In this document: piece by piece, positions 37,914-56,665 of the stretch | How positions within the stretch are numbered: position 1 is the first letter of the stretch | How the letters are laid out: the number at the start of each line of letters is the position of its first letter | NCBI GenBank assembly: GCA_965207065.1 | Contig: OZ242260.1 | Location: forward strand, 384,001 to 448,000 | Reading direction: 5' to 3' | From: a bacterium | GTDB taxonomy: Bacteria > UBA8248 | Length of the DNA: 64,000 nucleotides | Notes under the pieces: generated by a model | The model's database searches: none | Told to the model about the DNA's origin: nothing | The model's input: the letters and a program-made list of their open reading frames with translations, nothing else | Position numbers and translations under genes: made by a program

Positions 37914-38120
37914 CTAGCTCTTGAATCGTCTGAGATTCGTGCTTTTCCCCGTCTCCCGCCGGTTCATCCGCTCCAGCGCAAGGCCGGCTTCGAGCACCTC
38001 CTGATTGAAGCGAAACTCCTCCCAGGAGCATCGGGCCAGCAGGTGCGGGGGAAGGCCATAGGTCTTCGCCTGGAAATGAATGACCGCCAGCAGCTCTTTT
38101 CTACGCCGCCGGAAACGCAT
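37914..38120 (-). CDS. Putative tail assembly chaperone C-terminal (GT-type) extension
   Basis: Short ORF overlapping the chaperone 3' end in another frame; position after tail tube and chaperone. Confidence 0.5.
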   Translation of the reverse strand: MRFRRRRKELLAVIHFQAKTYGLPPHLLARCSWEEFRFNQEVLEAGLALERMNRRETGKSTNLRRFKS

Positions 38121-38493
38121 CGCCTCCCGGCGCGTCCTCCCCGGGAGCAGGGGCCGCCGCCTCGTTCTGAAGCGCCGTGACCGCCGTGAAGATAGCGTCG
38201 GCATCCGCCGGGGCGAGTTCATGGATGCTCAGTTCATCGGGCAGGCAACGCCCCGGTTCTTTTTCCGTCATCGAGCCGCGCCCGGGAACGAAGCAGCGCC
38301 TCAGGATGCAATGCACCCACTCCCCGGTAAGCGCGTATCGCTCCTCCTCGCCCGCAGCGCCGTTAGCGGCCCCTGCGAACAGCTTGGGATACGCCGCCAT
38401 GTCCAGGAGATTCGGTGCGCGTACAAAGCCCTTGAGCCCCGAGGGCAGGGTGATGGGCTTGCGTCCATGGTTCCTGTATTCTGATATTTCCAC
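38101..38493 (-). CDS. Putative tail assembly chaperone
   Basis: Directly after the tail tube gene; size and ITLPSG..VRAP pattern; GTG start with GGAGGA RBS. Confidence 0.6.
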   Translation of the reverse strand: MEISEYRNHGRKPITLPSGLKGFVRAPNLLDMAAYPKLFAGAANGAAGEEERYALTGEWVHCILRRCFVPGRGSMTEKEPGRCLPDELSIHELAPADADAIFTAVTALQNEAAAPAPGEDAPGGDAFPAA

Positions 38494-38565
38494 GATTCCT
38501 CCCGTTCGTTTTTTCTGAATCAATAGCTTAACCAAATGAAAAAGAAGCCGCTTGTCGAATAACGA

Positions 38566-39705
38566 CTAGGTGAAGACGATTGCTATCTCGTCATCGCCCG
38601 CATCGCGTGCCAGGCGGAAGGGTGCATCGTAGGTCAGCAGGCCGTCGCGATCCGAAAAACCCATATCCGCGTACTGGCATCTGGGCGCGGTGATGGTGCA
38701 GATGTTCCCGGCCCTGTGGCCGACTTGCACTTTCAGAGGGAGCCTCGCGCCATTTTCCCAATTCTTGAACGCATCATTGGTGGCTATGAGTACGGCCTCG
38801 GGATCGAAGGAACCGGAGGGTGCCCGCCCCGTCACGACGGCGTTGACGTGCCCGCCGGATGCGTTGGCGCTTTGGCGCAGCACCACTTCGTTGTTCATGG
38901 CGAAGCGGATGTTCGTCACGTCGAAATGAAACCCGCCGAACGAAAAGCCGCTCATGAGGACGGGTTCGGGCGTCTGGTCGTCGTAGGACGCGCCGTCAAG
39001 GATCGGTGCGTCGCTCACCTCGAAATCGGCCGCCTCGAATTCCCAATCCACCGTGGGAACGCCATCCAGAGGGCAGTTGATGGAAAAACTCCCCATGCAG
39101 CCCAGATACATGACCCGCAATCCATCGATGAACGCCGTCAGGCAGATTCTCGTATAGCCCGATTTATCGGAGGCGGGCGCGTAAGCGACGGAGGTATCCT
39201 CGACGATGGTTTCCTTCATCGCGCACGCCTTGAACAGCAATCCATAATCCGGCGCGACGCCCGCTGCGCCCGAACCGCGCAACTCGGTGGAGAAAGAAAT
39301 CTGCGCGGAGCGCTTCCCGGGAATCGAGGGAAAAGGCGAGAGGCTCGCATCCTCCACCGCGCGTTCCAGCTGCTCTACGCTGACCTCATGAGAGAAGTTG
39401 CCCGCCCGAAACAATTCCGAGGCAGCCGCCGGTCGATCCAGGAGGCAGGCCGTGCCCGCAGCGGGGGTGGTGTCCCAGGCGTCGTCCACCGTGAGCGTGT
39501 CCGAGGTCGCGTCAAAAATACTCACCTTTCTTCTTTGCCCGACGCCCACTCCCCGGATCGTGCGCAGCACCGAGCCATTCCAGAAATCATCATCCTCGGA
39601 AAGCGCGGCGTCCACGAGGGTGGAGGCATCTGCGGAATCCGCCACGAGTTCTTTCTCTTCCGTCGCGCCAATCGTTTGCCGATCCATCAAAATCGTATCG
39701 CCCAT
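38566..39705 (-). CDS. Phage-like tail tube (major tail) protein
   Basis: FSTELRGSG.AG.APDYG.L.KACA, GCMGSFSI and TGRAPSGSFDPEA patterns; position after tail completion genes; GGAGGAG RBS. Confidence 0.75.
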   Translation of the reverse strand: MGDTILMDRQTIGATEEKELVADSADASTLVDAALSEDDDFWNGSVLRTIRGVGVGQRRKVSIFDATSDTLTVDDAWDTTPAAGTACLLDRPAAASELFRAGNFSHEVSVEQLERAVEDASLSPFPSIPGKRSAQISFSTELRGSGAAGVAPDYGLLFKACAMKETIVEDTSVAYAPASDKSGYTRICLTAFIDGLRVMYLGCMGSFSINCPLDGVPTVDWEFEAADFEVSDAPILDGASYDDQTPEPVLMSGFSFGGFHFDVTNIRFAMNNEVVLRQSANASGGHVNAVVTGRAPSGSFDPEAVLIATNDAFKNWENGARLPLKVQVGHRAGNICTITAPRCQYADMGFSDRDGLLTYDAPFRLARDAGDDEIAIVFT

Positions 39706-39778
39706 CCCTTGTTCTCCTCCTTTCAGTTTTTTGAGGCGAAGGCGCATCCCTCGCCGGTATTCATTCCCCGTTCTCGTA

Positions 39779-40312
39779 TCAATCCCGCCGAATCCGCTCT
39801 ATCGCCCGGAGCCGGATTTCGGCGTAATGGCAAAGCACGTTTCCAAACGTCCTCAGTTCAATCAGGTCCACCTGCGGAGGCTGAAGGCGCTCCAGCGAGC
39901 GGACGCGCGGGGAGCCTGATTCATCGAGGAGGCGGAGCGTCCTGTCGTCCCGGAAGCGGTCGCAAATCTCCTCAAGCAGTTCCTGAAAGGCCACCTCGCT
40001 GCCCACCGCGTCCTCGGCGCTCATGATGCCGAACAGCAAGAACGTGTGGGTTCGCCTGCTGATGCCGGCGGGCGTGAAGCCACCAGCCGCATTCGAGCCG
40101 ACCGATGCAGCCTCCTCCCCTGCTCTCTCGCGCGTCAGCACCCAGCCCCTGATCTGGGCGAGGCCGTCGCCCGTCTGCCACCGGAAATGGTCCAGGTATT
40201 TCCCCAGGTCGGCCGACCAGCGCTGATAGCTGTGAACCCGCCCTGCCCCCGCCACACTCGATATTTCCGCCAAAATGGCGTCGCCGATTTCTCTGTATCG
40301 TGAATTAGCCAC
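39779..40312 (-). CDS. Putative tail terminator/completion protein
   Basis: Gene order between gp10-like gene and tube; SEVAFQELLEEICDRF and GNVLCHYAEIRL patterns. Confidence 0.6.
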   Translation of the reverse strand: MANSRYREIGDAILAEISSVAGAGRVHSYQRWSADLGKYLDHFRWQTGDGLAQIRGWVLTRERAGEEAASVGSNAAGGFTPAGISRRTHTFLLFGIMSAEDAVGSEVAFQELLEEICDRFRDDRTLRLLDESGSPRVRSLERLQPPQVDLIELRTFGNVLCHYAEIRLRAIERIRRD

Positions 40313-40808
40313 TCATTCTCCTCGCAATCTCATCCACCAGTTCAAGAATGCGCCTATCGATTCGGCTCTGGTTCTCCTCGAAGGCGCCCGCGAACATGCG
40401 ACGCCCCGGTATCCCGTGCCGGGCGATTGATCGGGCAACGAGGAAGGACACCCTCTCGATAGACCCATCGGGCGGCCCCAGTTTGTGGGCCACCCAGCGA
40501 TACAGGGACGTGCCCTCCCTCCAGGGCGGCATTCTGCCGCCCGCCCGACGCCCGAATTCCACGTACCTGGCGTATGGGGTGCGTGAGGCGACCACGCCGC
40601 GCAACACGCTTGGGTTCTCTCCTTTGATTTCGGTGTAAATACTGCCCCTGAGGTTTCCGCTCGCGCCGATGGGCGTTCGCGCTATGACCTCGCGCCTGAG
40701 CATTCCGGTAATCTCGGCCATCGACTCGTGCGCGAGGAGAAGAACCCCCTCCCACGCGATAGCCGGCATCTCCGGCAATTCTTCAAGCGTTACATATCGA
40801 CGAAACAC
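40305..40808 (-). CDS. HK97 gp10-like neck/tail component
   Basis: RTPIGASGNLRGSI, YARYVEFG, PP..L..WV..K and GIPGRRMF..AF. Confidence 0.8.
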   Translation of the reverse strand: MFRRYVTLEELPEMPAIAWEGVLLLAHESMAEITGMLRREVIARTPIGASGNLRGSIYTEIKGENPSVLRGVVASRTPYARYVEFGRRAGGRMPPWREGTSLYRWVAHKLGPPDGSIERVSFLVARSIARHGIPGRRMFAGAFEENQSRIDRRILELVDEIARRMSG

Positions 40809-40826
40809 TCCGCCTCTCCTATCCGC

Positions 40827-41537
40827 CTAGCGATCTTCGGACGCGCCGTGCGTGAAATACTCACCGCGCGCCAGTGAAAGAAGCACGTCCCAATCGAGAG
40901 ACGCGCCCGCCGGACCCGCCACTTCGCCTTCTTTGCGGCCGAGATGGTTCTGGTATTTGCGCTCGAGTTCCCGCCCCAGGCGCGTGTATTCCGAGGACTT
41001 GCTCTGGTAGTCCACTGAATCCGCCGCGAGGGTCGGGCTCGAGGACTGGGCGAAGCGGCGGGCCAGGAGGTGACAGCCCTCCGCGGCGGCCAGCCAGGCT
41101 ACGGCGGTCCGATCGTTTTCGGGAATGCTCGTGCGCTCGTCATCGGCCGTGTGCTTGATCGTGTAGAACAGGCGAAGCGTGTGGCCCATTTGAGGAGCGA
41201 AGTACATGAGCCTGAACCTCGCCGCCGGCGTCCCCTTGGCATAGATGATCCAGGAACTCCTTCGCAAAAAGGAGGGCTTTCTCTCCCCCTGGGGATATTC
41301 CACCTCCCGGATGAAGGAGAGGGAATCGTCCCAGTCCTCGGGGAGGGGAAAATCGAACGTCTCGCTATCGCCTGAGTAATCGGCGAACGAGACGAGCGGC
41401 ACGTCTTTGCTGTAGCGCGTGAGCGCCGCGTTCACCAGATCGGCGTAGTCCGCCTCCTCGACGCCGAACTCCCGGGGCAGCGCGCCCGCCTTCAACAAGA
41501 CCTTCACCTCTTTGATGATCGTCTGCCTGCTCGCCAT
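40827..41537 (-). CDS. Putative head-tail adaptor/connector
   Basis: Position after capsid; AALTRYSKD.P, EVEYP.G and ADSVDY.SKS..Y patterns. Confidence 0.6.
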   Translation of the reverse strand: MASRQTIIKEVKVLLKAGALPREFGVEEADYADLVNAALTRYSKDVPLVSFADYSGDSETFDFPLPEDWDDSLSFIREVEYPQGERKPSFLRRSSWIIYAKGTPAARFRLMYFAPQMGHTLRLFYTIKHTADDERTSIPENDRTAVAWLAAAEGCHLLARRFAQSSSPTLAADSVDYQSKSSEYTRLGRELERKYQNHLGRKEGEVAGPAGASLDWDVLLSLARGEYFTHGASEDR

Positions 41538-41580
41538 TTCAGTTTTCTCCTCTCCTCTCGCTTCCCGGATGCAGTCGGTC

Positions 41581-41922
41581 TCAAGTCTTCAGCGCGAGCC
41601 TGGCCTCGAACGTGAACAAAGCCTCCTCCCCGCCGACGGACCACGCGAGCCTGAGCCAGGGGCCGATGTTCGCGAGCATTGCGAGGGTTTTTCCGGCCGA
41701 TGTGATTTGCTCAGGCCTGGTATGGACGAAAGCTACTTCATCATCCGCCGGGCCGGTTTGCACCTCGAAATCAAGCGTGGGCGATGCGCCCGAGACCACC
41801 TTCACGTCGATGAACAAGAGCGCCTCGGTGAAGCGGCTCACTTCGAACGCCGTGCTGCCTCCCGCGGCGACGCGGGCCGCGGGAGGAGCGAGGACTATCG
41901 TGTGGGTTCGCCTGTCGGACAT
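41581..41922 (-). CDS. Small beta-rich virion protein (possible capsid decoration)
   Basis: Follows capsid gene; VSGASPTLD..VQT and WLRL.W.V.G..FTF beta pattern; AGGAG RBS. Confidence 0.55.
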   Translation of the reverse strand: MSDRRTHTIVLAPPAARVAAGGSTAFEVSRFTEALLFIDVKVVSGASPTLDFEVQTGPADDEVAFVHTRPEQITSAGKTLAMLANIGPWLRLAWSVGGEEALFTFEARLALKT

Positions 41923-41955
41923 GGCTTCTCCTTGATAAGGGCAATCGCCATGCCA

Positions 41956-44034
41956 CTAGGCGGGCGCGCCTCGGTAAAAGCCGCGAAAGTCAAGGACGGC
42001 GCCGCCGTAGACGTGTCTGATCTTGTAGCGAATCTTGTCCGCGCTGAATCCGCTGCCTGCGGAGGGGTTGTCCTCGACGAACAGCTCGGGCTCGCGCATG
42101 TCGTCCATGAAGCCGATTTCGATTGTGTCCATGAGGCCCGGATCGGCGATCAAGTACCAATCGTTCGTCTCGGTGAGTTCGGGCACCCACAAGGGTTCGA
42201 TGCCCAGGCGGTTGATGAAGCTCGGCTGATTGGAGTTCCCGTCCGAGACAACCTTGACGGGCGACTGGGTGACGTCGAATGCCTCTTCGAGCAACTCCGT
42301 GGGGTGGACGAGATATTTCGGCCGAGCCTGGGCCGCTATTTCAACGCCTTCCTCTCCATAAAACGTCTGCTGACCCATCGCCTTGATGGCGGCGACGGCG
42401 CCCTCGTACGTGAGCTCGTTCGCGGAGGTGTTGTTGTGGTCAGCGTGGAACAGCGCATGGCCGTCGTATATGTTGGCATTGGACATGAGAAAATCGAATA
42501 CGAAGCCATTCAGGGTGCGCTGGGCCGCTCGGGCGAGACGCTGGGGAATCATGCGAATCGCGCCCATGTCGTCGTTCTGGATCATCTCCCATGTGAGATC
42601 CTCCACGCCGCCGCGCTTGGCTACGGCGTACGTCACTTCCTCATCCGTCGGGGAGGTAAGCGCCGGATAAGTGGCCTGTTCGGCGACTTTTTGCAGATCG
42701 CCGTAGCCGCCCACACGCACCCGGCGGTTCGTACGGAAATCCTTAACGGGCGTCACGGAAGAGGCGATCTTCTTCCACTGGTGAAAGCGCTCGTCCCTGA
42801 AATCGCGCAGCATGGCGCGGCGGATGGAATCTCCAAAAGCCTCGCCCCACGTGCTCGTCTGCAAGGAGGCGGAGAGGCGCCGCACCCCGTTCCAGTCCTC
42901 GGCGGCGCGGTGATAGTGGAACGTCTCTGCGAAGAACTGGCGCGGGGTCAGGCGATGTCCCGTGAAATCCTGAAACGCCTCGCTCATGAAGCGATAGGGG
43001 CGTTCGCCGTCTACCACCTCGTCGCGCGAACCCCAGAGCCCGTCGAGAGCCGCTTTCTTGCGGTCCGCCTCGTCGCGCATTACCTCCGCACGCGCGCCGA
43101 AACCACGGAGCGCGCCGCTCGCCGTGAGTTTTTCCAGCGTGGCCGCCTCAACCCGGATCGCCTCTTCGATCTCCTCTTCTGTAAAACTCCCGTCCCCGAA
43201 CTGGGCGAGCATCTTCTCCTGAACGGCTTCGGGCAACGCGGAGGCCGTCAGTTTCTGAGCGAGCAACCTGCGAGCCGCAGCCCCGGTTTCGGTTCCATCC
43301 TTCATGGTGTTTCCTCCTTTTTCCTTCAAGTCCAGCTCGAGACCAGCGTCTTCACAAGCCGCGAGGAACTGTTGCGGCGTCCAGGCATCGCCGAGCCTCT
43401 TGCCCGATTCGGGCGCCATGCTCTTGAGTTTCTTTCCGAGCTTTTCGAACATTTTCACCTCCGATTGAATGGAATGATTGGCGGCGAGACCCAGAATCCC
43501 GCCCCCGAGCTTGCCTTTGTGCACGACGTCGACGGAGTGGACCGCCAGAATCTTTTCGAAATGCAAAACGAGCCCATCGGCCTCCTCGCGGAACTCCGCC
43601 TGCGCGAGCACGTCGAAGGAAAAGCCAAAGGGCTCCTCAAGACCCCGGGCCAGCGCATCGTGCGCCAGCGCCTGAAACCAGGCCGCTGATCGCGAAACCG
43701 CAAACGTGCTCAGAAGCCCCTCCTCGCCCATGCGGACCTTGCGGTGCCAGCCGACCAGGTTCCTGATGTCGGGACCGCCCGAGGCGGCGTGGTTGGCAAA
43801 GGCTTGCGCACCCTCGAACAGGGGAGCGGCCTCGCGCAGAACGTCGCGGGGCAGGAACCACTCCCCGTCCCTCGAGTAGCCGGCGCGCGCGATCAACACC
43901 TCGAAATCCCAGGCTTCATCCGGCGGCTGCGCTTCTTCCGCAACCGCGCGGATGAGGTGGCCATGCAGCCTTAAGGTATGAGAATCCTTCTGCGCCTCGG
44001 CGCGCGCCCACATACGGTTCAACCATTTTTTCAA
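41956..44034 (-). CDS. Fused prohead protease-scaffold-major capsid protein (Mu gpT-like, HK97 fold)
   Basis: N-terminal FANH/GFS/SVDVV protease-like motifs; C-terminal DFR..RVRVGGYGDL, TWEMIQNDD.GA and DG.ALFHADHNN capsid motifs. Confidence 0.85.
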   Translation of the reverse strand: MKKWLNRMWARAEAQKDSHTLRLHGHLIRAVAEEAQPPDEAWDFEVLIARAGYSRDGEWFLPRDVLREAAPLFEGAQAFANHAASGGPDIRNLVGWHRKVRMGEEGLLSTFAVSRSAAWFQALAHDALARGLEEPFGFSFDVLAQAEFREEADGLVLHFEKILAVHSVDVVHKGKLGGGILGLAANHSIQSEVKMFEKLGKKLKSMAPESGKRLGDAWTPQQFLAACEDAGLELDLKEKGGNTMKDGTETGAAARRLLAQKLTASALPEAVQEKMLAQFGDGSFTEEEIEEAIRVEAATLEKLTASGALRGFGARAEVMRDEADRKKAALDGLWGSRDEVVDGERPYRFMSEAFQDFTGHRLTPRQFFAETFHYHRAAEDWNGVRRLSASLQTSTWGEAFGDSIRRAMLRDFRDERFHQWKKIASSVTPVKDFRTNRRVRVGGYGDLQKVAEQATYPALTSPTDEEVTYAVAKRGGVEDLTWEMIQNDDMGAIRMIPQRLARAAQRTLNGFVFDFLMSNANIYDGHALFHADHNNTSANELTYEGAVAAIKAMGQQTFYGEEGVEIAAQARPKYLVHPTELLEEAFDVTQSPVKVVSDGNSNQPSFINRLGIEPLWVPELTETNDWYLIADPGLMDTIEIGFMDDMREPELFVEDNPSAGSGFSADKIRYKIRHVYGGAVLDFRGFYRGAPA

Positions 44035-44131
44035 GGGGAACTCCTTTCTCGCTGGTCTTTCAGAAATTCAACTTCCGGCGATGCGCCGGAGACCGCCGCC
44101 TGGTTAAACAAGGAGCGGGTGCAACGGCGAT

Positions 44132-44184
44132 AATTTAGGGCAAGGAGACTCGAACGCGGGCCGGGCAAATGCGGGGAAATGCGC
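44132..44184 (-). promoter_or_regulatory. Shared activator box plus -10 element upstream of the capsid operon
   Basis: GCGCATTTCCCCGCATTTGC-N24-CCCTAAATT on the minus strand; near-identical copy at 56613-56665. Confidence 0.75.
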
Positions 44185-44377
44185 ATCCGGCGTCTTTTTT
44201 TGCGGAATTTTGAAATTGCTAATTGAAAATTTTAAGAAAATGCGGTAAATTACGGAAAATTCTGGAGTTGCGGATGATGCGGGTGGTCCCGGCGTCTACC
44301 AATTCTGGATACTTCGCCCGCCACTCAGGAATAGCCTGAATTCGCCGAGCAAAAAGACCGCCCCTTGAACAGGACGT

Positions 44378-45688: not shown

Positions 45689-46082
45689 GGCCCTTCTTTT
45701 CAGATACTTGAATTTCTACCTTCAGAAAAATTTGCTTTTTTCGCTTAAAATACCGATATTGAATGAACCGGGCTACAGTCGCTGAGACGTCCAGGAGCTT
45801 TGACGAGCACTAAGGGCGAACCATTTTCGATGGTACTTGGCTGGCCCAAGTGAGGCGGCAAGGAGCCGACACAGAAAACGGCTCCGGCCCGGGTTCAAGG
45901 AACCCTTCAACAGAAGGAGGATGCGATGATATCAACGATAAATCGCTTCAGCCGTGCGGAAACGCCACCCTCCCCGGCCCCATCGCGTCAGCCGGGCGGG
46001 GAGGAAGACAAAGGCTGATGCACAAATAAAGGCGACAAAACGCCTTCGTGAGGTGAGACGAGTTCTCACCCTGAAAAAGAGC

Positions 46083-46126
46083 AAAAAAAGAGAGCGGGGT
46101 GCAACGCCCCGCTCTTCTTTTTTTTT
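46083..46126. terminator. Bidirectional intrinsic terminator
   Basis: A7-GAGAGCGGGG..CCCCGCTCTTC-T9. Confidence 0.85.
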
Positions 46127-46127
46127 C

Positions 46128-46322
46128 CTAGCTCTTGGCCTCGAGTTTCCGCATCTCGATTTCGAGTTGCTGGAGCCTGTTCTTGATCATGTTGAAGTCG
46201 TACTCGAACCCCTCGGCGAGCAGCGTGAGACCATGATAGAGCTGGTGCTTTTCCGGCTCTTCCTCCGCGTTCACCGAATCGAGCATCTCGGCGAAAACCT
46301 CTCTGGCATGATGAAAGCTCAA
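46128..46322 (-). CDS. Small hypothetical coiled-coil protein
   Basis: 64 aa helical ORF ending directly at the terminator. Confidence 0.6.
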   Translation of the reverse strand: MSFHHAREVFAEMLDSVNAEEEPEKHQLYHGLTLLAEGFEYDFNMIKNRLQQLEIEMRKLEAKS

Positions 46323-46457
46323 AACGCCTTCCCCCTTTTTGAATGAGAACGCACATTAAGAAGCCATAAATCTTTTGCAGGAAGAATCCCGCTCCTATCT
46401 TTGCTAGAATCCATCGCACCGACAAATAAACCACATCGCAAACGAGGAGTCATCTTC

Positions 46458-46955
46458 ATGCCGGAAAGACCAAACACGCCGCAAGTCATCCTCCGCCACA
46501 TTCAGGGCACCCAGCTTCAGATGCTCACCACCACGGGCAAACACTCCTACGTGCTCGATGAGCCCGAAACCAGAGGCGGCACGGACCTGGCCGCCACGCC
46601 GTTCGAGTTCTTCATCGCAGGGCACGCGGGCTGAGGCCTCTACACGCTGCTGGGAGCGGCGAAGGCCAAGGGCATCCATATCGACGACGTGGAGGTCCAC
46701 GCGGAGTTCAAACGGAATATTTCACCCAAATTTCATTCGGATTACCACGCGGACCCCGAGCGGAGAAAACTCGCCATCGGCGTCATCCGTACGAGCTATT
46801 ACATCCACGGCGACGTAACCGAAGAGCAAAAGGCGGAACTTCTCGATGAACTTGAGAACTGCCCCATCCACAACACGCTGATGACGCCGCCCAGGCTCGA
46901 GGAGCGGATCGTCGTTCTGGAGAAGGATGAAACCGCGCCCATAGAGATTTCGTAA
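46458..46955 (+). CDS. OsmC-like selenoprotein (in-frame TGA at 46632-46634 read as Sec)
   Basis: DEP..RGGTD..ATPFE....HAG-TGA-G continues in frame to ENCPIHNTL; TGA sits at the OsmC catalytic Cys position; SECIS-like hairpin follows. Confidence 0.85.
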
Positions 46956-46984
46956 GGGCGGGGAAAGAGCCGCTCGCTAAATTA

Positions 46985-47224
46985 GGGGTTCTTGAAAAAG
47001 TTCTCATCGGTCGGTCGGAATCGACCACTGCCGTCATTCCGGCGAAAGCCGGAATCCATTTTCGGATGCGGGTGAATGAACGGCGGCGTTTCATTCCCCA
47101 CCAATGCGCGGGAACCCTGACGAAAGGCAAAAGGCGTAAAAATAGATTCCGGCTTTCGCCGGAATGACGGTGAATACTCTCGATGGGGGCAACAACCCCA
47201 TTGAGGGACTTTTTCAACAACCCC
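46985..47224. mobile_element. MITE-like element with IS1182-like ends carrying a CGTCATTCC repeat pair
   Basis: Ends GGGGTTCTTGAAAAAGTTC / GGACTTTTTCAACAACCCC; internal inverted pair at 47031-47170. Confidence 0.75.
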
Positions 47225-47279
47225 AATAATGGGAGCCTTGAACTTCGGCAGGAAAGGAAGACACCCTTCAAAATGAGTC

Positions 47280-47753
47280 TTAGTAGGAAATCTTGTCTTC
47301 CATCTGAGCCCATAGATTGAAGGATTCGAGGGCTTCATCTTCCAGGAGCCGCGTTGCTTCGAGCTTTCTGTCAGCGACCGGCAGGGCGATTTCCTTGTAG
47401 AGAAATTCATCGGAAAACCCGATGGCGTCAGCCTCGACGATGGAGTTTCCAAAATACATACGGTCGAGTCTCGACCAGTAAATTGCGCTCAAACACATCG
47501 GGCAGGGTTCACAGCTCGTATATATCTCACAGCCTGACAAATCGAAATTCTTCAGTTTCGCGCAGGCCGCCCGTATGGCGATCATCTCGGCATGGGCTGT
47601 GGGATCGCAAGATGACGTCACCCGGTTCGTACCCTCGCCGATGATTTCGCCATCCTTCACGACGACGGACCCGAAAGGCCCGCCGAGTCCTTCCCTCACG
47701 TTTTGAGAAGCGAGCGATATCGCCTTTCTCATAAAAGCTTCCCGTGTCTCCAT
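47280..47753 (-). CDS. Nucleoside/guanine deaminase (CDA superfamily, GuaD-like)
   Basis: GGPFG, DPTAHAE and SCEPCPMC. Confidence 0.9.
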   Translation of the reverse strand: METREAFMRKAISLASQNVREGLGGPFGSVVVKDGEIIGEGTNRVTSSCDPTAHAEMIAIRAACAKLKNFDLSGCEIYTSCEPCPMCLSAIYWSRLDRMYFGNSIVEADAIGFSDEFLYKEIALPVADRKLEATRLLEDEALESFNLWAQMEDKISY

Positions 47754-47959
47754 TTCCGCATCTCCCGTTGAGTTCCACCTTTCCGCCGATGTTTTCTCTT
47801 CTCTGCGTCTATATTTTCCCTGATTCCCCTCATCTTAACTTGTTTTTGGAATGGTTTGCATTTATTTTGCAGGCACTCCATTTATCGTCTCCAAAGAGCG
47901 GAGCCTGAAACGAGAGAAACCCTGCTGCGCGAAATTCGCAATCCAATAAGGATTTGATT

Positions 47960-48865: not shown

Positions 48866-48874
48866 ATTTTACGC

Positions 48875-49879
48875 ATGAAACACGGAATCGCCATGCTGCC
48901 TCCCGCGCCCGAGACCTACGCGCACTGGTGCCGGCTCTCAGAAGAAGCGGGCTTCGACGTCGTCTGGGTGCCGGACTCACAATCGCTTTACCGGGAGCTT
49001 TACGTCTCGTGCGCCATCTGCGCGGCGAACACCTCGCGTGTCCTGCTGGGTCCCAATGTCACCAACCCGCTCACGCGGCATCCCGCGACAGCGGCGAGCG
49101 CTATCGCCACCGTGGATGAGTATTCGGGTGGTCGCGCGCTGTTCGGAATCGCCACGGGCGACAGCGCCGTCCTGAACCTGGGCCTGCGCCCCGGCCGCGT
49201 GGACGACATGAGAGACTACGTGCTCGCCATGCGCGGGATGCTAGAGGAGGGCACGGCCCACTACCGGGGAAAGCCCTGCACGCTGAACTGGCACAAAAAG
49301 CGGGTTCCGCTCTACATCGCCGCCGAGGGGCCGCGCACCATCCGCCTTGCGGGCGAGATCGCCGACGGCGTCACCATCGGCACAGGCCTCACGCCCGAAG
49401 TGGTGGCCGATTCCCTCACCTGGCTCGAGGAGGGCGCGAGGAAATCGGGCCGCAAGGTGAACGATCTCGACATCTGGTGGCTCGCCAAGGTGAACGTGCG
49501 CGATGACGGCGAACAGGCACGCGAAGAAATCCGCATGGCCCTGGCCGCGAGCGCGCACCACGCCTTTCGCTTCACGCTCGAGGGCAAGCGGATTCCCAAG
49601 GAACTCCTCTCCGCCGTCGAAACCCTCAAAAAAGGGTATGCGTTCCACGAACACGAGATGGTGGACAAGCAGACGAACGCCGAACTCGTGGACAGGCTCG
49701 GCCTCCGCGAGTACCTGCTCGATCGCTTCGCCATCGCGGGCTCGCCTGCCGAATGCAGACAGAAGATAGAGGACATGAATTCGTTCGGCGTGGAGAACTT
49801 GAGGATCGCCGCCCACGTGCACGACAAGCCCGCCTTTATCCGGGCGTGGGGCCGCGAGATAATCAGCCGGAGCAAGTAA
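48875..49879 (+). CDS. LLM-class oxidoreductase (Mer-like)
   Basis: PDSQSLYRE, VTNPLTRHP, GIATGDSA and AAEGP..LAGEIADG. Confidence 0.88.
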   Translation: MKHGIAMLPPAPETYAHWCRLSEEAGFDVVWVPDSQSLYRELYVSCAICAANTSRVLLGPNVTNPLTRHPATAASAIATVDEYSGGRALFGIATGDSAVLNLGLRPGRVDDMRDYVLAMRGMLEEGTAHYRGKPCTLNWHKKRVPLYIAAEGPRTIRLAGEIADGVTIGTGLTPEVVADSLTWLEEGARKSGRKVNDLDIWWLAKVNVRDDGEQAREEIRMALAASAHHAFRFTLEGKRIPKELLSAVETLKKGYAFHEHEMVDKQTNAELVDRLGLREYLLDRFAIAGSPAECRQKIEDMNSFGVENLRIAAHVHDKPAFIRAWGREIISRSK

Positions 49880-49896
49880 CCAAAGAGGCCATCATC

Positions 49897-50898
49897 ATGA
49901 GACACGGCATTTCCTTCAGACCGCCCGACACGGATTCATTCGCCCGCTGGTGCAGGTGCGCGGAAGAGCTCGGTTTCGACGCGGTGTTCATCCCCGATAC
50001 ACAATCCCTCTACCGGGAGGTCTACGTATCGAGCGCGATATGTGCGATGGAGACGAGTGAGATCATTTTCGGCCCTTGCGTCACGAACCCCGTCACGCGG
50101 CACCCGGCGGTTGCCGCGAGCGCCATCGGCACCATCAGCGAGCTATCGGGCGGACGCGCCTTCTGGGGGATCGCCACGGGCGACAGCGCAGTCCTGAATC
50201 TGGGTCTCAGGCCCGCGAAGCTCGCCGAGATGCGCGAGTACATCCTCGCCGTGCGGGGCATGCTCGAAGAAGGAAGCGCCCAGTACAAGGGGAACAACGC
50301 CCGGCTGAGCTGGCATAAATCCCACGTGCCCATCCACATCGCTGCAGAAGGCCCCAAGACCTTAAGCCTGGCGGGCGAGGTGGCCGACGGCGTCATCATC
50401 GGAACGGGCCTCATTCCCGAGGTCATCGCGGACACGCTCTCCTTCATCGACGAGGGCGCCAGGAAGTCCGGCCGAAGGGTGGAAGACCTTGACCTCTGGT
50501 GGCTGGTGGACGCCCATGTGGACGCGGACGGGGAGCGCGCCCGCGCGGACATCCGCACCGCCCTCGCCGCGAGCGCGCATCATTCCTTCTCCTTCACGTT
50601 GGAGAACAAGCGGATTCCCAAGGAACTCGAATCCGGCATCCGCGCGCTGAGGGACGGTTACCAGACTTCGGAGCACGGCTTCATGGATAAATCCAACAAC
50701 GCAGGCTTGGTCGATGAGTACGGACTGAGGGACTACCTGGCGGAGCGCTTCGCCATCGTCGGCACGCCTGAAGAATGCCGGGAGAGACTCCAGCACCTCG
50801 AAAACCTGGGCGTCAGGGGGCTTCGCATCAACAACAACCTGCCCGACAGGACGGTCTTCATGAACGCCTGGGCGAAGGATGTTCGGGGGATCGCTTAA
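49897..50898 (+). CDS. LLM-class oxidoreductase (Mer-like), paralog of the upstream gene
   Basis: Same motifs as 48875-49879 and visibly high similarity. Confidence 0.88.
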   Translation: MRHGISFRPPDTDSFARWCRCAEELGFDAVFIPDTQSLYREVYVSSAICAMETSEIIFGPCVTNPVTRHPAVAASAIGTISELSGGRAFWGIATGDSAVLNLGLRPAKLAEMREYILAVRGMLEEGSAQYKGNNARLSWHKSHVPIHIAAEGPKTLSLAGEVADGVIIGTGLIPEVIADTLSFIDEGARKSGRRVEDLDLWWLVDAHVDADGERARADIRTALAASAHHSFSFTLENKRIPKELESGIRALRDGYQTSEHGFMDKSNNAGLVDEYGLRDYLAERFAIVGTPEECRERLQHLENLGVRGLRINNNLPDRTVFMNAWAKDVRGIA

Positions 50899-51044
50899 AC
50901 TCCGCGCGAGTAAAACGCCAAATTCCCACCGAGTAGACGCAAACCGATAATTTCCCTCGGGACGCCGCTTCGGTTAGAATGGCGGAAATGATCGAGACAG
51001 GCGAAATTCGACCTCCCCGTACAATCTCTCACAGGAGGGTGGGC

Positions 51045-51599
51045 ATGAGCGAAATGACGAAGGAAAAGGAAAAAATTCTCGTCTACGAGCCCGTGGCGGA
51101 GGCTCCGGGCGCGAGCGCCGTCATGGCCGCGCGGCCCGAGAGCTTAAACGGCAAGAGCGTGGGCCTCATCAACAACACCAAGGATTTCACGGACGATATT
51201 TTCGACGTCATGGGCGCCGCGCTCGAAGAGCAATTCCCGGGCGTGCGCGTGGTTCGCTACCGGAAGGAATCCGTGAGCGGCGCATCGCCCGCCCTGATGG
51301 AGCAGGTGGAAGGAGAGTGCGACGCCGTCGTTTCCGCACTCGGCGACTGAGGCTCGTGCACGTCGTGGAGTATCCACGACAGCGTCGCTCTCGAGAAAAG
51401 AGGGCTGGCCACGGTCACCATCGTCACCGACGCTTTTGCGAGCTATGCGAAGCAACTCACCAAGCTGCACAAGATGAACGAGCTTCCCCTCGTTACACTG
51501 CCCCACCCCATCGCTGGCAGAAAGCGCGAGGAGGTGGATGAGATGTCGGCAGAAGCGAGTGCGCATCTGGCAGGCGCCCTGACGCAAACGAGCGGCTAG
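51045..51599 (+). CDS. UGSC-motif selenoprotein (in-frame TGA at 51348-51350)
   Basis: ALGD-TGA-GSCTSWSIHD..LEKRG..TV.IVTDAF continues in frame to TAG at 51597-51599; SECIS-like hairpin follows; AGGAGG RBS. Confidence 0.85.
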
Positions 51600-51606
51600 T
51601 CTATCC

Positions 51607-52707: not shown

Positions 52708-52773
52708 GGGGGATTGCATTTCCGCTCTGTCTCGCGGAACGATACGGGGGTCCGGGCGGGTTCTCCTCGCAGA

Positions 52774-53061
52774 TTAGGCTACCCTGAACTTATCCACCTT
52801 GATTTCGTCGGCCCGGGCGCGCGCCTTCCAAAGATCGTAAGCCATCTGCAGGCCGAGCCAGGTCTCCGGTGTCGAGCCGAACGCTTTGGACAGGCGAATC
52901 GCCATTTCCACGGAGATGCCGGTGTGTTCGTTGACCAGTTCCGACAAGGTCTGACGCGTGACGCCAATCCCCTCGGCCGCTTTCGTCACGGACAATCCGA
53001 GCGGCTCAAGACATTGCCGTTTCACGATCCCACCCGGATGTGGAGGATTTTGCATCGCCAT
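52774..53061 (-). CDS. higA: HigA antitoxin (HTH)
   Basis: NPPHPG, SVTKAA..GVTRQTLS, EMAIRLSKAFG and WLGLQMAYDL. Confidence 0.92.
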   Translation of the reverse strand: MAMQNPPHPGGIVKRQCLEPLGLSVTKAAEGIGVTRQTLSELVNEHTGISVEMAIRLSKAFGSTPETWLGLQMAYDLWKARARADEIKVDKFRVA

Positions 53062-53074
53062 CACAGTACCCTCG

Positions 53075-53353
53075 TCAATGGTAGTCGAGGTAATCTAGAT
53101 CGACTACGTCACCCTCTTCGAATCGAAAGGTTACCCGCCAATTCCCTGAAACCGTCACTGCATAATGACCCTTCAGTTCCCCCTTCAGTCGGTGGAGCCG
53201 AAAACCAGGGAGAGCAACATCTTGCGGCTGCCGACTCCTGTCCAGAACGGCCAGAATATCCCTTAGTTTCTGAACATGCTCCGGCGCGACTCGCCGCGCC
53301 GTTCGACCATCGTAGAGTGCTTTCAGGCCCCGATGTTTGAAAGACGCGATCAT
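53075..53353 (-). CDS. higB: HigB toxin (RelE/ParE family)
   Basis: MIASFKHRGLK, PGFRLH.LKG, VSGNWRVTF and DYLDYH. Confidence 0.92.
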   Translation of the reverse strand: MIASFKHRGLKALYDGRTARRVAPEHVQKLRDILAVLDRSRQPQDVALPGFRLHRLKGELKGHYAVTVSGNWRVTFRFEEGDVVDLDYLDYH

Positions 53354-53513
53354 CGATGAAGAATAATGCGTCAGGCGTCGCCTGTCAACTGACGAACCGG
53401 CAACGATAACGTCAGGAGGGCGAGGCGGGTGACCCCTCGTTTGAATTTTCGTATGTGAAGACAGAGATAGAATTCAGGCCTAGAAAACGCCCTTGGGCCG
53501 CGTTCTTCCCCCC

Positions 53514-54863
53514 CTACCCCTCCATATCCATACCGAACTGGCCCGCCAAGTGGGTGATGAGCTTGCCGGCGGCATCGTCGCTCATCCAGCCGCGTGAGGT
53601 GGCCGTCTCGAGCGCGGTGCTGACGCGCAAAAGGGCTTCGGACATCTTCTCGGTGTCGCGGACGGAGATATCCGGCAGAACGGGCGATACGCCGGAGCGG
53701 AGCGCTTCTTCTGGCAGCGCGCCCGCGCGGTGGGCTTCTTCCAACTGCTTGTCGGCCATGGCTTGCAGGATATGGCGCACGGTGCGCTGGCGGCGCGTCA
53801 TCTTCTTCAAGGTGGGCTGATCCATCGACTCGGCCGAGGCGCGGTTCACGTCCTCCCCCTGGGCGAACCAGTGGGACGGGATCCCCACGCCGCCTAATAG
53901 AAGCCCCCGCATCATCTTGGCGATGCCCTGCGCGCCGGATTCGCCTCCCTTGAGATCGGGCGAGACGGCCTGCCACTCCTCTTTCTCGTTGTGGACGCGG
54001 ACGCTCGAGGGCTTTGGCGCGACGCCGTTCTCAGCGAGCCACTCGGCTATCTTCTCGGGGCCGGCGCCTTTCAGGGTGACGTCGTAGATGAAGCTGTTCT
54101 GCAGGCGCGCGCGCTCCACGGCGTCGAAGATGAAGCGCTCATACGTGTCTATCCAGTCGATGGCGGCGAGCAGGTCCGAAGCGCCGCGCGCGGCGTCGCT
54201 CGCCTTGTTGATCTGGAACAGGAACGCCTCCCCATCCGTAAAGCGCGCACGCTCCCTCCGGGCGGATGCGCTCAGATAGCCGCGCGGATCGCCGCCCAGC
54301 ACCGTCCGGATTCGCTTGCCCTTTCGTGCAGTTCCACTCGGCCCCCCGGCGCGCAGGACGACCCCGATGGGCAGGGCGCAGTTGTCCGGGTCCGTCACCA
54401 CCTCTTCAATCAGGCGGGGGCTGACGTAGCCCAGCCGAACCCGTCCCTCGAAGCGCGAGACGGCGACGGGCAGCAAGAGTTCCCCGAAGATGCCGAGTTC
54501 AGATACGAGCCGCTCGAAACGGATGTCCATCTGGTTCACGGGATCGCCCCAGAACGCCTTCACCGCGCTCAGGGCGCGCTCATCCTCCCCGTGCCAGCTT
54601 ATTCCCTCGCCCACGACGTGATCCGTCACGATTTCGATCAAGCGCTGGCCCATGAGGTTCGTGAGCCAAAGCTCATACGCCAACGCCTGCATACGCGCGT
54701 GCGTGTAAGGCGAAACTCCGCCGCGCCCCTCTCCCAGGGGACGCCAGATTCTCTCGTCCGGATCAATCTCCGCACTCATTCGCCCTGTACGCTGCGAGCC
54801 CTCTCCTTTTCTCCCTGCTCCCGATTTCCGCCCGGCTGCCTTCACCTTCTTCACACTCTCCAT
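53514..54863 (-). CDS. Phage-like portal protein
   Basis: Follows terminase; VVGEG, GE.LL, GASDL, GIPSHWF and VNRASAESM..PT.K...RRQ patterns. Confidence 0.75.
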   Translation of the reverse strand: MESVKKVKAAGRKSGAGRKGEGSQRTGRMSAEIDPDERIWRPLGEGRGGVSPYTHARMQALAYELWLTNLMGQRLIEIVTDHVVGEGISWHGEDERALSAVKAFWGDPVNQMDIRFERLVSELGIFGELLLPVAVSRFEGRVRLGYVSPRLIEEVVTDPDNCALPIGVVLRAGGPSGTARKGKRIRTVLGGDPRGYLSASARRERARFTDGEAFLFQINKASDAARGASDLLAAIDWIDTYERFIFDAVERARLQNSFIYDVTLKGAGPEKIAEWLAENGVAPKPSSVRVHNEKEEWQAVSPDLKGGESGAQGIAKMMRGLLLGGVGIPSHWFAQGEDVNRASAESMDQPTLKKMTRRQRTVRHILQAMADKQLEEAHRAGALPEEALRSGVSPVLPDISVRDTEKMSEALLRVSTALETATSRGWMSDDAAGKLITHLAGQFGMDMEG

Positions 54864-54865
54864 GC

Positions 54866-55507
54866 TTATCTCCTCTTTAGAATCCGCTTGTGAAAAGCCT
54901 GCGGGACCACCGTGCCCCCGGCGAGGGGGGCCAGCACTCCCTCGCTCTGCGCCAGGGATTCGGCCAGCCGCGCGTAGGCGCAGGCGAAGCCGAAATGGTT
55001 CTCGTTTCGCTCATACGACAGCACCGTCTCCCCGGAGGAGCGGATGCGCGGCTTTTTCCTCAAATTCATGAGGTGACGCTCCACCTTGCCCAAAAGCGCC
55101 TCCTCCCCTGTATCTCCGGGCTGCGGCAGCAGGACCCGTCCGGCTCCCTCGTGAAACTCCTCCACGAGGTGATCCAGCAGGTCCTCGCGGTTCATCCGCA
55201 CGTGGCGACGCTCCACCCCCAGGAACGAGACTTCCCTGGTCTGCATCTCGCCCTCCGTGTGCCGCCAGATGAAGCCGCCGTCTGGATTCAGGTCGTACAC
55301 CGCGCGCGCCTCCCGGGTGTGGGGACCGCCGTCTATGACGAACGCCTCCACGCCCAGGTCCGAGAACACGGCGCGGCAGCGCTCGATGAGCCGCTCGACG
55401 GGAGGCGCTTCGAAATACATCCACCGGGCGGGCCGGCCCTCCTCGCGCACAGCAAGCGCGCAGACGTCGCCCGTGTCGATCCCGCAGAAGCGATGGCGCG
55501 CGCTCAT
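54866..55507 (-). CDS. Terminase large subunit, nuclease part (separate ORF)
   Basis: RFCGIDTGD, FVIDGGP and C-terminal NHFGFACAY RNase H-like pattern; own GGAGG RBS and ATGA overlap. Confidence 0.65.
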   Translation of the reverse strand: MSARHRFCGIDTGDVCALAVREEGRPARWMYFEAPPVERLIERCRAVFSDLGVEAFVIDGGPHTREARAVYDLNPDGGFIWRHTEGEMQTREVSFLGVERRHVRMNREDLLDHLVEEFHEGAGRVLLPQPGDTGEEALLGKVERHLMNLRKKPRIRSSGETVLSYERNENHFGFACAYARLAESLAQSEGVLAPLAGGTVVPQAFHKRILKRR

Positions 55508-56562
55508 GCGGGCGCCTCCGCCAGATGGTAGGGCGCAGCGTCGCGCAGCTTGCGGAGAAGTTCGCGCGAGATCGGCTGGGTATCGCCCGCATCGGGGGCG
55601 GCGAGGGCCGAGCAGCGAAAGCGCGCCTTCTCGCTCGGGAGGCGGGCGGCGGCCCATTTCGCCGCGACCCGGTCGAGACGCACCGCGCCGATAGCGAGTT
55701 GGGAGAGGCGATAGCTCCTGTGCCGGGGTCTCTCGCGCGCGGCCTCCCACCGCCCCGCTCCCCTGTCGAGCGCGCCGCCGCAGGCCGGACAGGCGAGCGC
55801 ATCGCCGCTAAAGACTTTCGGCCAGTGCTCCTCCAGGACGCTATCGGCATGGCACGCCTGACACCTCACATGCCAGCGTCTCCGGTCACCCGCCTCAAAC
55901 ATGGCGTGAATGCCCGCGCCCGGGGTTCTGCCGACGGCCAGGTTGAGCGTCAGGGCGAGTGACGAGGCGTCGATGCGGTCGTTAGACCACTTGAGGTTGT
56001 CCGCCGGCAGGTCGTCCACCTCGTCACGGATCAGCACATCGAGCGGGATGGATATGGCGTTGCCGATGTCCCGGAGGCCAAGGATGTAGAGAAATCGTGA
56101 GCCCCCGCGCCCGGGGAATTCCTTCAAACCCCTGGGCGACGCGCCCTTGTATTTCCCATCACGCATGAGCGAGGCGAGTCCCCTGCGCCTGAGCGTGGAG
56201 CGCACGCGCGTCTGGTCGAAGCGGTCGGCGAAATCCTGATCCGGCAGAAAATAGCCCACGTTCAGGCGGTGGATGGTGACGCAGTAGAGCGCAAAACCGA
56301 TGGCGAGGGTGGTCATGCCCACCTGCGCGCCCTTCAGGACGCTGATGGTCTGATCGGGCGTGCGGTTATTCAGAACCTCGTCGAGCGCGGAGACGACCTC
56401 CAGCATCGCCTCTCTTCCCTCGAAGGTGAACGCGCCCTTGTCGGTCGACATCTCGCTCATCAGAAACCGAGCCAACCCGTGCATCTCGCCCGAATAGCGC
56501 GATGAGCCGCCCGACGCGAGAGCCATGGCGGGCGCCCCGATGATTTTCCGGGATTTGCGCAA
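55504..56562 (-). CDS. Terminase large subunit, GpA-like ATPase part
   Basis: Walker A-like VLKGAQVGMTT, Walker B LIRDEVD, TP..GI..F..GD.R.W.V.C..C and CPACG zinc motif. Confidence 0.8.
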   Translation of the reverse strand: MRKSRKIIGAPAMALASGGSSRYSGEMHGLARFLMSEMSTDKGAFTFEGREAMLEVVSALDEVLNNRTPDQTISVLKGAQVGMTTLAIGFALYCVTIHRLNVGYFLPDQDFADRFDQTRVRSTLRRRGLASLMRDGKYKGASPRGLKEFPGRGGSRFLYILGLRDIGNAISIPLDVLIRDEVDDLPADNLKWSNDRIDASSLALTLNLAVGRTPGAGIHAMFEAGDRRRWHVRCQACHADSVLEEHWPKVFSGDALACPACGGALDRGAGRWEAARERPRHRSYRLSQLAIGAVRLDRVAAKWAAARLPSEKARFRCSALAAPDAGDTQPISRELLRKLRDAAPYHLAEAPA

Positions 56563-56612
56563 AGCCGGAACTCCTCCCTATCCAGGATGCCGTGCGCATC
56601 CTCTCGGGGAGG

Positions 56613-56665
56613 AATATAGGGGTTGGTGCCGGCAAACCATGACGCGCAATTGCGGGGAAATGCGC
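56613..56665 (-). promoter_or_regulatory. Shared activator box plus -10 element upstream of the terminase operon
   Basis: GCGCATTTCCCCGCAATTGC-N24-CCCTATATT on the minus strand; matches 44132-44184. Confidence 0.75.

Follow-up and report, generated by a model that had tools for sequence, protein, structure and literature searches.

The window analysed here, 64,000 nt of a 4.48-Mb single-contig bacterial genome (G000:C1:384001-448000), raises the question why two groups of phage virion genes are held among the metabolic genes of their host. An initial annotation of this sequence took them for a candidate gene transfer agent (GTA) or domesticated virion system. Through gene-by-gene inspection of the 28-64 kb part of the window and comparison with related genomes, we find that the genes belong to a three-module system that is inherited vertically, stands under purifying selection, has been lost jointly in all three modules and has conserved promoters. 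It is very probably a domesticated siphovirus-type particle system (viriform) under selection, and we consider it a strong candidate for a new, independently evolved GTA in a family of uncultured Nitrospinota-labelled bacteria.

The capsid-tail module (window positions 37914-44034, minus strand) comprises a capsid fusion, four connector-type proteins, a tail tube protein and chaperone frames, and the packaging module (53514-56562, minus strand) comprises a terminase ATPase, a terminase nuclease and a portal protein. The two modules are separated by 9.5 kb of host genes. Family profiles and the coordinates of the open reading frames (ORFs) bear out both minus-strand virion modules of the initial annotation, with one correction: what it had as a single terminase gene is a pair of overlapping ORFs. 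Its expectation that the remaining genes lie elsewhere in the genome was right as well. When the ORFs of the class-level relative G032 were searched against the whole G000 genome, they matched G000:C1:2484047-2486889, within a tail-tip and tape-measure locus (G000:C1 2480133-2486889) that lies outside the window at a distance of 2.06 Mb, has the same promoter type and is lost jointly with the other modules. In G032 itself the cluster is contiguous, with a single-ORF terminase, portal, capsid fusion, connectors, a phrog_290 tube and further tail genes. No further loci were found in G000 with the ORFs of G032, G049, G024 and G023 as queries, a search which lysis or regulator loci without a homolog there would escape. 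The phage-derived packaging, head and tail genes thus sit in the chromosome at three places and amount to roughly 16 kb.

The system is widespread in the genus and occupies fixed positions. Capsid, tube, terminase ATPase and the 403-aa TipJ-like protein of the third locus each gave a single match in 20 of the 22 other species. The portal was matched in 21, being full-length in 19, in pieces in G016 and a mere 26-27-aa remnant in G010. Two species, G009 and G010, are without any module genes. Synteny was followed in nine carriers with complete or few-contig assemblies (G001, G002, G007, G008, G011, G014, G015, G020 and G022; 40 kb each). The window from about 28.4 to 58.9 kb is collinear in all nine, host genes between the modules included, and the orthologs stand between the same flanking genes. 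All seven genes of the third locus are present in the nine genomes too, and the host genes upstream of it are common to six to nine of them. The flank past the tape measure varies, the aminotransferase found there being matched in one of the nine.

A split layout of this kind could also result from a recent or still mobile prophage that has been rearranged, or from an assembly chimera. Nothing beyond the unusual layout speaks for this explanation, which we regard as extremely unlikely. The same layout and flanks recur in nine other assemblies that span the junctions, and in a sister genus the system occupies the corresponding place in the chromosome. Contigs assembled from four short-read runs cross the cupin/chaperone, capsid/cdaA and terminase/yajQ junctions, so that the layout does not stem from faulty assembly. 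Flanking direct repeats were not observed, and deep tree nodes are congruent with the host tree. There is no tyrosine recombinase in the window; of the 54 in the genome, the nearest is about 58 kb off, and none lies within about 100 kb of the third locus. The annotated flanking genes are all host metabolic genes, the genome-wide search for mobility functions having been one for tyrosine recombinases. The contiguity, integrase, att sites and patchy distribution of an integrated functional prophage were not found.

Purifying selection on the genes is apparent from their substitution patterns. For 10 genomes we calculated the median pairwise ratio of nonsynonymous to synonymous substitutions (dN/dS, NG86), dropping pairs with dS outside 0.05-3 (for cdaA, 44 of 45 pairs were kept). 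The ratios are far below 1, with medians of 0.139-0.452 for genes of the system versus 0.073-0.305 for 25 host neighbours, at a median dS that is mostly 0.4-0.65 for both. Across 17 phage-derived genes in 10 genomes, no in-frame stop was present beyond N-terminal over-extensions of the ORFs (first 11-21 codons). GC content at third codon positions is 0.77 in the system and 0.74 in the host neighbours.

Maximum-likelihood trees of concatenated proteins were compared for the capsid-tail (1846 columns), packaging (945) and tail-tip (1996) modules and the host neighbours (4664). All four recover the pairs (G007,G001) and (G022,G008), a deep G020 and a seven-genome crown with 98-100% support, so that gene trees and host tree agree at the deep nodes; inside the crown, support is low. 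Together with the selection data, this documents vertical inheritance within the clade. The tests that the initial annotation had named as able to refute its interpretation (orthologs and flanks in relatives, tree congruence, dN/dS, a nearby integrase and the integrity of the junctions) all gave results in its favour.

The two species without the system suggest that its parts depend on each other. In G009 and G010 the host genes are kept in order and all three modules are gone. In G010, cdaA follows the cupin gene after about 0.7 kb, and the portal end and a yajQ fragment are left before amt. Both species also retain the M23 peptidase side of the third locus, but not the tail genes. A host tree of 12 genomes (3697 columns) places G010 as sister to G015 (99/99) and G009 with G007 and G001 (93/96), and absence of the modules requires two changes in 200 of 200 bootstrap trees. 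Since three unlinked modules disappeared jointly on two separate occasions, in unrelated species, none of them is likely to be of use on its own, and the genes at the three loci are in this sense functionally linked.

A further connection between the modules is their promoter region. The element GCGCATTTCCCCGCAWTTGC, consisting of two 10-bp repeats, lies 83-130 nt upstream of three gene starts, those of the terminase (one mismatch), the capsid gene (none) and the 402-aa tail gene (one mismatch). In each case a -10-like hexamer (TATATT, TAAATT or comparable) follows 27 nt downstream. The shared promoter element that had been noticed before the two window modules is thus real. Motif and hexamer occur at the same spacing before all three modules in nine of nine other genomes, while the spacer sequence varies; all 27 sites have at most four mismatches, 25 of them at most two. 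The initial annotation called the modules co-regulated, and the same element does precede every one of them, but the claim has to be weakened since the class is common to dozens of other sites. The G000 genome holds 2 exact copies, 24 at ≤1, 48 at ≤2 and 92 at ≤3 mismatches, of which many precede short repeated elements or small ORFs and two precede integrase-like genes. Shared regulation of the modules is plausible.

The element may have changed together with its genomic background. In G049 the variant CCGAATTTCCCCGAATTTCC stands at three internal sites, upstream of the capsid gene, of the tape-measure region and of the 402-aa gene; it has 10 copies at ≤2 mismatches in that genome, where the G000 form has none. 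The motif would have changed jointly in host sites and particle genes between genera, with CGCATTT repeats in G000 and CGAATTT repeats in G049. In the clusters of G056, G044, G047, G023, G024, G027 and G032 the motif was not found in any form. We conclude that the modules appear to use a lineage-wide promoter class, and that module-level promoters predate the scattering of the genes, which may have been tolerated because such promoters came earlier.

Many motif copies in the G000 genome form facing pairs at a distance of 220-330 bp. Such a pair encloses an AT-rich block of AATTTATCGA-like repeats, and a hairpin and T-run lie on one side (for example L086, G000:C1:1863401-1864400, positions 320-650). 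An Rfam scan of three motif-bearing sites gave nothing at E ≤ 0.1. These repeated elements are possibly small RNA genes or the relic of a mobile element.

Could the genes be the remnant of a dead prophage, carried along with host genes and not yet decayed? Only structural genes are left, lysis and small-terminase genes were not found, and decay is visible in G013, G016, G023, G046, G050, G055, G057 and G058, as would be expected of a remnant. On the other hand, synonymous divergence is about 0.4-0.6 per site with 0 internal stops in 170 gene copies and dN/dS of 0.14-0.45, promoters are conserved while the spacers drift, the tail-tip module is intact and has its own promoter after a 2-Mb move, and loss was all-or-none and happened twice. 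A dead remnant is accordingly a very improbable explanation.

To see how far the system extends, we used a phylum set of 51 genomes, of which 41 besides G000 belong to the same family. The capsid gene was found in 32 of the 41 (E ≤ 1e-20); the counts are 31 for the 403-aa tail protein and 33 for the terminase ATPase (E ≤ 1e-10). All three genes are about full length in 28 genomes, including G049 with its ATPase in two frames. Seven genomes have none of the three (G009, G010, G048 and four small genomes of genus g22), and six have partial or broken sets (G023, G046, G050, G055, G057 and G058).

Layouts outside the genus suggest how the present arrangement arose. In G056 (genus g2) the order is terminase, portal, a luciferase-like monooxygenase and cdaA, capsid through tube, tape measure, and the 177- and 403-aa tail proteins, followed by further DNA and then CofE-CofC-CofD-FrhB. 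This genome keeps the tail-tip genes attached, at the same chromosomal site as in G000, and would represent the ancestral state. The capsid gene also adjoins cdaA in G044 (g17) and G047 (g19). In G024 the tape measure is followed by the 402-, 177- and 403-aa tail proteins. G023 has the same site, with portal, nuclease half and 403-aa gene in pieces and everything from capsid through 402-aa gene gone. In G049 (g20) the genes from portal through the 402-aa gene are contiguous, and the terminase lies 11 kb away, in two frames. Because of these layouts, we infer one old acquisition, in which the family ancestor would have gained a roughly 40-kb-type tailed phage beside the F420 operon; host genes would then have been inserted early between portal and capsid, and in this genus the tail-tip block would have moved far off, with the tape measure now at the end of the block.

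Several observations weigh against reading the system as a GTA. Synteny and dN/dS cover nine of 20 carrier species, 11 more fragmented assemblies having been left out, and NG86 is a crude estimator applied to pairs that are not independent. In the tail-tip tree G000 groups with G002 (84/84) and in the host tree with G014 (100/100), a conflict for which recombination between closely related species could be responsible. The promoter class also occurs outside the system, as its 48 copies at ≤2 mismatches show. Family profile scans recognised no small terminase, endolysin or holin at any of the three loci. The system is also dispensable and decaying in places: it is absent from genus g22 (four genomes) and G048, genes are partial, broken or missing in four of five genomes of genus g2, and early decay is seen in G013, where a 1.8-kb insert splits the tube gene (G013:C2:994475-997423), and in G016, whose portal is in three pieces with a TGA (G016:C31:16116-17434).

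The properties of the individual genes are summarised in Table 1.

Table 1. Genes and promoter elements of the three modules. Positions refer to the window; genes without a position belong to the third locus. Profile matches are given with E-values, and dN/dS is the median pairwise value.
Feature	Length	Position	Strand	Evidence	dN/dS
Large terminase, ATPase half	352 aa	55504..56562	-	PF05876 GpA_ATPase 2.6e-15; TTG start after GGAGGAG	0.232
Large terminase, nuclease half	213 aa	54866..55507	-	phrog_675 terminase large subunit 6.5e-10, profile 358-549 of 576	0.216
Portal protein	449 aa	53514..54863	-	phrog_10963 portal 3e-46	0.139
N-terminal domain/scaffold/major capsid fusion	692 aa	41956..44034	-	PF25209 7.4e-47; phrog_29592 3.5e-131 (residues 9-689)	0.185
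Head-module protein	113 aa	41581..41922	-	no family match; present in 9/9 genomes examined	0.321
Connector-position protein	236 aa	40827..41537	-	position; no family match	0.256
HK97-gp10-like tail completion/neck protein	167 aa	40305..40808	-	PF04883 2e-6; phrog_5 8e-13	0.452 (highest of set)
Tail-terminator-position protein	177 aa	39779..40312	-	position only; no family match	0.194
Tail tube protein	393-aa ORF	38566..39747	-	PF18906 Phage_tube_2 3.3e-14; phrog_290 1.8e-21	0.183
Tail assembly chaperone-position protein	144-aa ORF	38101..38535	-	no family match; conserved in 9/9 genomes	0.187
Second chaperone frame	102-aa ORF	37914..38222	-	no family match; 122-nt overlap with first frame	0.209
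Direct-repeat promoter element before terminase		56646..56665	-	GCGCATTTCCCCGCAWTTGC with one mismatch; -10-like TATATT 56613-56618	
Direct-repeat promoter element before capsid gene		44165..44184	-	exact copy of GCGCATTTCCCCGCAWTTGC; -10-like TAAATT 44132-44137	
Tail protein	402 aa				0.264
Tail-tip protein	177 aa				0.181
Tail protein	403 aa				0.237
Tail protein	313 aa				0.268
Tail protein	231 aa				0.322
Membrane protein					0.279
Tape measure (weak assignment)	559 aa				0.250

The terminase has an unusual organisation. The ATPase domain scores above the GpA cut-off (57.2 bits vs 25.6), and its Walker A-like LKGAQVG(M/L)TT and Walker B LDVL(I/V)RDEVDD motifs, as well as a Cys-rich stretch, are invariant across 10 genomes. 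The nuclease half matches the C-terminal third of large terminases and contains FCGIDTGD and YERNENHFGFACAYARLAE, likewise invariant in 10 genomes. In a GpA-type terminase both activities reside in one polypeptide; here they are in two ORFs in 10 of 10 genomes. The nuclease ATG overlaps the ATPase stop codon (ATGA), 8 nt after a GGAGG, and the junction GGAGG...(A/G)TGA is kept in all 10. Stand-alone relatives of the nuclease half numbered 52 in a database search; they measure 117-304 aa, extend down to 49% identity, are unnamed or 'hypothetical' and come from Nitrospinae-, Nitrospinota- or Tectomicrobia-labelled metagenome-assembled genomes. A relative in which this half is part of a longer, fused protein was not present among 5169 candidates, which is weak evidence. 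These features point to an old, functional two-gene terminase, the halves of which would work as a complex made through coupled translation.

The capsid fusion also matches phrog_4523 'major head and protease protein' (4.8e-52). It scores below the cut-offs of the prohead protease/major capsid protein models NF045541 (192.5 bits vs 525) and NF045540 (157.5 vs 475), and NF045541 aligns only to residues 252-689, so a protease fusion covering the whole model was not found. Among the proteins assigned by position, the 236-aa connector has its counterpart (31% identity) in the corresponding place of the contiguous G032 cluster, and the 177-aa terminator-position protein is conserved in nine of nine genomes and also in G032 and G027. 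The tube protein probably starts at the ATG at 39705; in-frame stops of relatives are confined to the first 13 codons of the ORF. A 313-aa gene of G049 and a 329-aa gene of G032, both between portal and capsid, were considered as a core gene missing from G000, which has no homolog of either. They are mutually unrelated, and the site is therefore a variable slot.

Siphoviruses produce G/GT chaperone pairs by frameshifting, and the two chaperone frames invite the same comparison. Conservation of the 102-aa frame begins at about residue 42, without a conserved start codon, and CGTTTCC at the end of the 144-aa gene, inside the overlap, is kept in 10 of 10 genomes. A +1 frameshift on TTT-C at this site probably joins both frames.

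The third locus encodes, on one strand, ORFs of 402 (probably 358), 177, 403, 313 and 231 aa, a membrane protein (122 aa within a 181-aa ORF) and a 559-aa protein. The latter has weak matches to phrog_1535 (9.4e-8) and NF058675 (1.4e-8, 34.8 bits vs a cut-off of 220), which weakly suggest a tape measure. The 403-aa protein is nearest to viral clusters carrying Phage-tail_3/TipJ (score 0.95-0.97, a lead only) and the 358-aa protein to clusters without a name. Profile searches with alignments of these two against PDB sequences gave no match or chance matches at E 0.18 or worse, and their AlphaFold2 models from 7-row alignments (mean pLDDT 40.4 for the 403-aa and 42.6 for the 358-aa protein) were too poor for searching. 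The 231-, 313- and 177-aa ORFs of this locus had no family match.

In some relatives, one to three extra lipoprotein genes precede the tape measure. G001 has three tandem paralogs there, 67-74% identical, between membrane protein and tape measure (L071 13794-15581), G022 has one at the same spot (L078 12625-13278) and G000 has none. The site is a variable accessory slot inside the system.

Selection as such fits any beneficial particle function equally, and the benefit of a domesticated particle need not be gene transfer: the particle could serve for killing, for releasing DNA or protein, as a decoy in the defence against related phages, or as a helper in the packaging of some satellite element. 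Copies of the promoter class also precede many small repeated elements and lie close to two integrase genes, and the regulon may link to mobile DNA; no DNA-uptake link to the system was found. Against this, the constraint on capsid, portal and both terminase halves is among the stronger in the set (dN/dS 0.14-0.23) and their catalytic motifs are invariant, which points to selected DNA packaging, superfluous for a tail-only killing particle. A benefit other than gene transfer is an unlikely explanation, though one with real weight.

Gene transfer as the function has precedents with which the system can be compared. The available sections of PMC11841831 describe GTAs as having only packaging and structural genes, at distant loci and of independent phage origins, and by these criteria the system fits a GTA, as far as can be told from genes alone; that it functions as one is the view toward which we lean. 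Likeness to the RcGTA type (Rhodobacter capsulatus, Caulobacter), as presented in those sections, extends to head, tail and packaging genes in the chromosome, to vertical descent across a large clade in which losses happen now and then, and to a siphovirus-type tail (PMC11841831); the lack of replication and integration functions would be shared too. Several distant loci are a common feature as well (PMC11841831; abstract of PMC5026251). The gene families are different, as the initial annotation had it. Here the capsid is a PF25209 fusion, the terminase is of GpA type (PF05876) and in two ORFs, the tube belongs to PF18906 and the host is labelled Nitrospinota, not Alphaproteobacteria. RcGTA is regulated by CtrA and GafA. 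Among 10 proteins scanned against NCBIfam, the sole touch with RcGTA was that of the RcGTA_tape model with the tape measure (34.8 bits, cut-off 220), and homology of the head-tail proteins to the RcGTA family was not found.

BaGTA (Bartonella), VSH-1 (Brachyspira), Dd1 (Desulfovibrio) and VTA (Methanococcus voltae) are independent domestications of different tailed phages, according to the available sections of PMC11841831, and the present system would add another. These agents, likened here by description, are defined by observed transfer, whereas the present system is defined by comparative genomics alone. The closest isolated phage for the capsid fusion is the Microcystis phage Mae-JY22 (41.4-kb siphovirus, PP438414.1; 33.7% identity over 95% of the query, 1e-80). 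It has the same gene order, with portal, a small gene, capsid fusion, three small genes, a tube-sized gene, two small genes, tape measure and tail genes. Mae-JY22 is a complete contiguous phage with non-structural genes, in contrast to the structural part found here, which is split among host genes. The terminase resembles lambda gpA in its ATPase domain family and in the nuclease half that follows it, and differs in being two polypeptides and in having no Nu1-like small subunit that we could find.

F-type tailocins and capsid-forming phage satellites (cf-PICI) are also phage-derived structural gene sets kept in chromosomes. Tailocins have no genes for capsid, portal and terminase, whereas the present system has them, and under constraint. 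The satellites are mobile, carry integrases and are patchy in distribution; the system has no nearby tyrosine recombinase and a fixed chromosomal site.

The host genes around the modules largely agree with those first named in the initial annotation. Between the modules lie cdaA/DAC, three small ORFs, a deaminase, a dehydrogenase, two luciferase-like monooxygenases, a UGSC selenoprotein, a 366-aa ORF and HigBA. One flank has the F420 genes FrhB, CofD, CofC and CofE and a cupin gene, the other yajQ/DUF520 and amt. The OsmC gene of the initial annotation was not found, the three small ORFs at 45954-46955 having no Pfam match. The selenoprotein gene (50979-51599) has an in-frame TGA at residue 124, in the motif GDUGSC, and is open to 206 aa. 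The monooxygenases (48875-50898) are tandem paralogs, with a 300-nt direct repeat at 70% and proteins that are about 58-60% identical. Directly upstream of the terminase, yajQ (56675-57160) is present as fragments in G002, G011 and G015 and absent in G020, with the terminase intact, and is therefore not needed by the system.

Some features of this neighbourhood are of recent or mobile origin. The toxin-antitoxin pair HigB/HigA (52774-53353), immediately downstream of the portal gene, could not be found in any of the nine syntenic relatives and is therefore a recent insertion. At about 53319-53344 the contigs of all four runs break off. At 47031-47170 there is a 32-nt inverted repeat, 97% complementary with its arms 76 nt apart. 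Summed contig depth over 46696-47359 is about 20-25 times that of the flanks in four runs, and many contigs end or branch there. The repeat looks like a high-copy element of the miniature inverted-repeat transposable element (MITE) type. Elsewhere in the genome, several tyrosine recombinases occur in three-gene arrays with identical scores at four places (G000:C1 34559-36935, 902899-905275, 1151174-1153550 and 2323717-2326093), which suggests a multi-copy three-recombinase mobile element.

Taken as a domesticated GTA, the system would work as follows. The acquired phage would have lost all but its packaging, head and tail genes, which would now be ordinary chromosomal genes, in this genus at three places. 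Each module would be transcribed from its own promoter, consisting of the 10-bp direct repeat, 27 nt and the -10-like hexamer, of a class used at many genome sites. The products would assemble into DNA-filled particles with a non-contractile tail. Such particles could not carry a replicating phage genome and would therefore package host DNA, acting as a gene transfer agent. On balance we favour this statement as a whole, from domesticated viriform, ancestry, three modules and own promoters to gene transfer. The more specific description, an independently evolved GTA from a Mae-JY22-like siphovirus in a Nitrospinota-labelled family, with a two-piece large terminase, no recognisable small terminase and three modules wired into a lineage-specific direct-repeat promoter regulon, could as easily prove wrong as right.

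To our knowledge, only a handful of independent GTAs are known, all from experiments in cultured organisms. The available portions of the literature on gene transfer agents or prophages with Nitrospinota contain no description of this system. Bioinformatic discovery of GTAs has been blocked by their resemblance to dead prophages, their several loci and their differing phage origins, as stated in the available sections of PMC11841831. As the present case shows, a domesticated particle system can be told apart from a prophage remnant by comparative genomics alone. The signals that separate the two are a chromosomal site that is fixed over the family, selection, the all-or-none loss of modules that are not linked, and the conservation of the module promoters. 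The conserved two-ORF terminase, for which no small subunit was recognised, is relevant to the question of how DNA packaging by GTAs can do without sequence specificity. For the Nitrospinota-labelled bacteria, the system provides a testable GTA candidate in a phylum without a cultured model for gene exchange.

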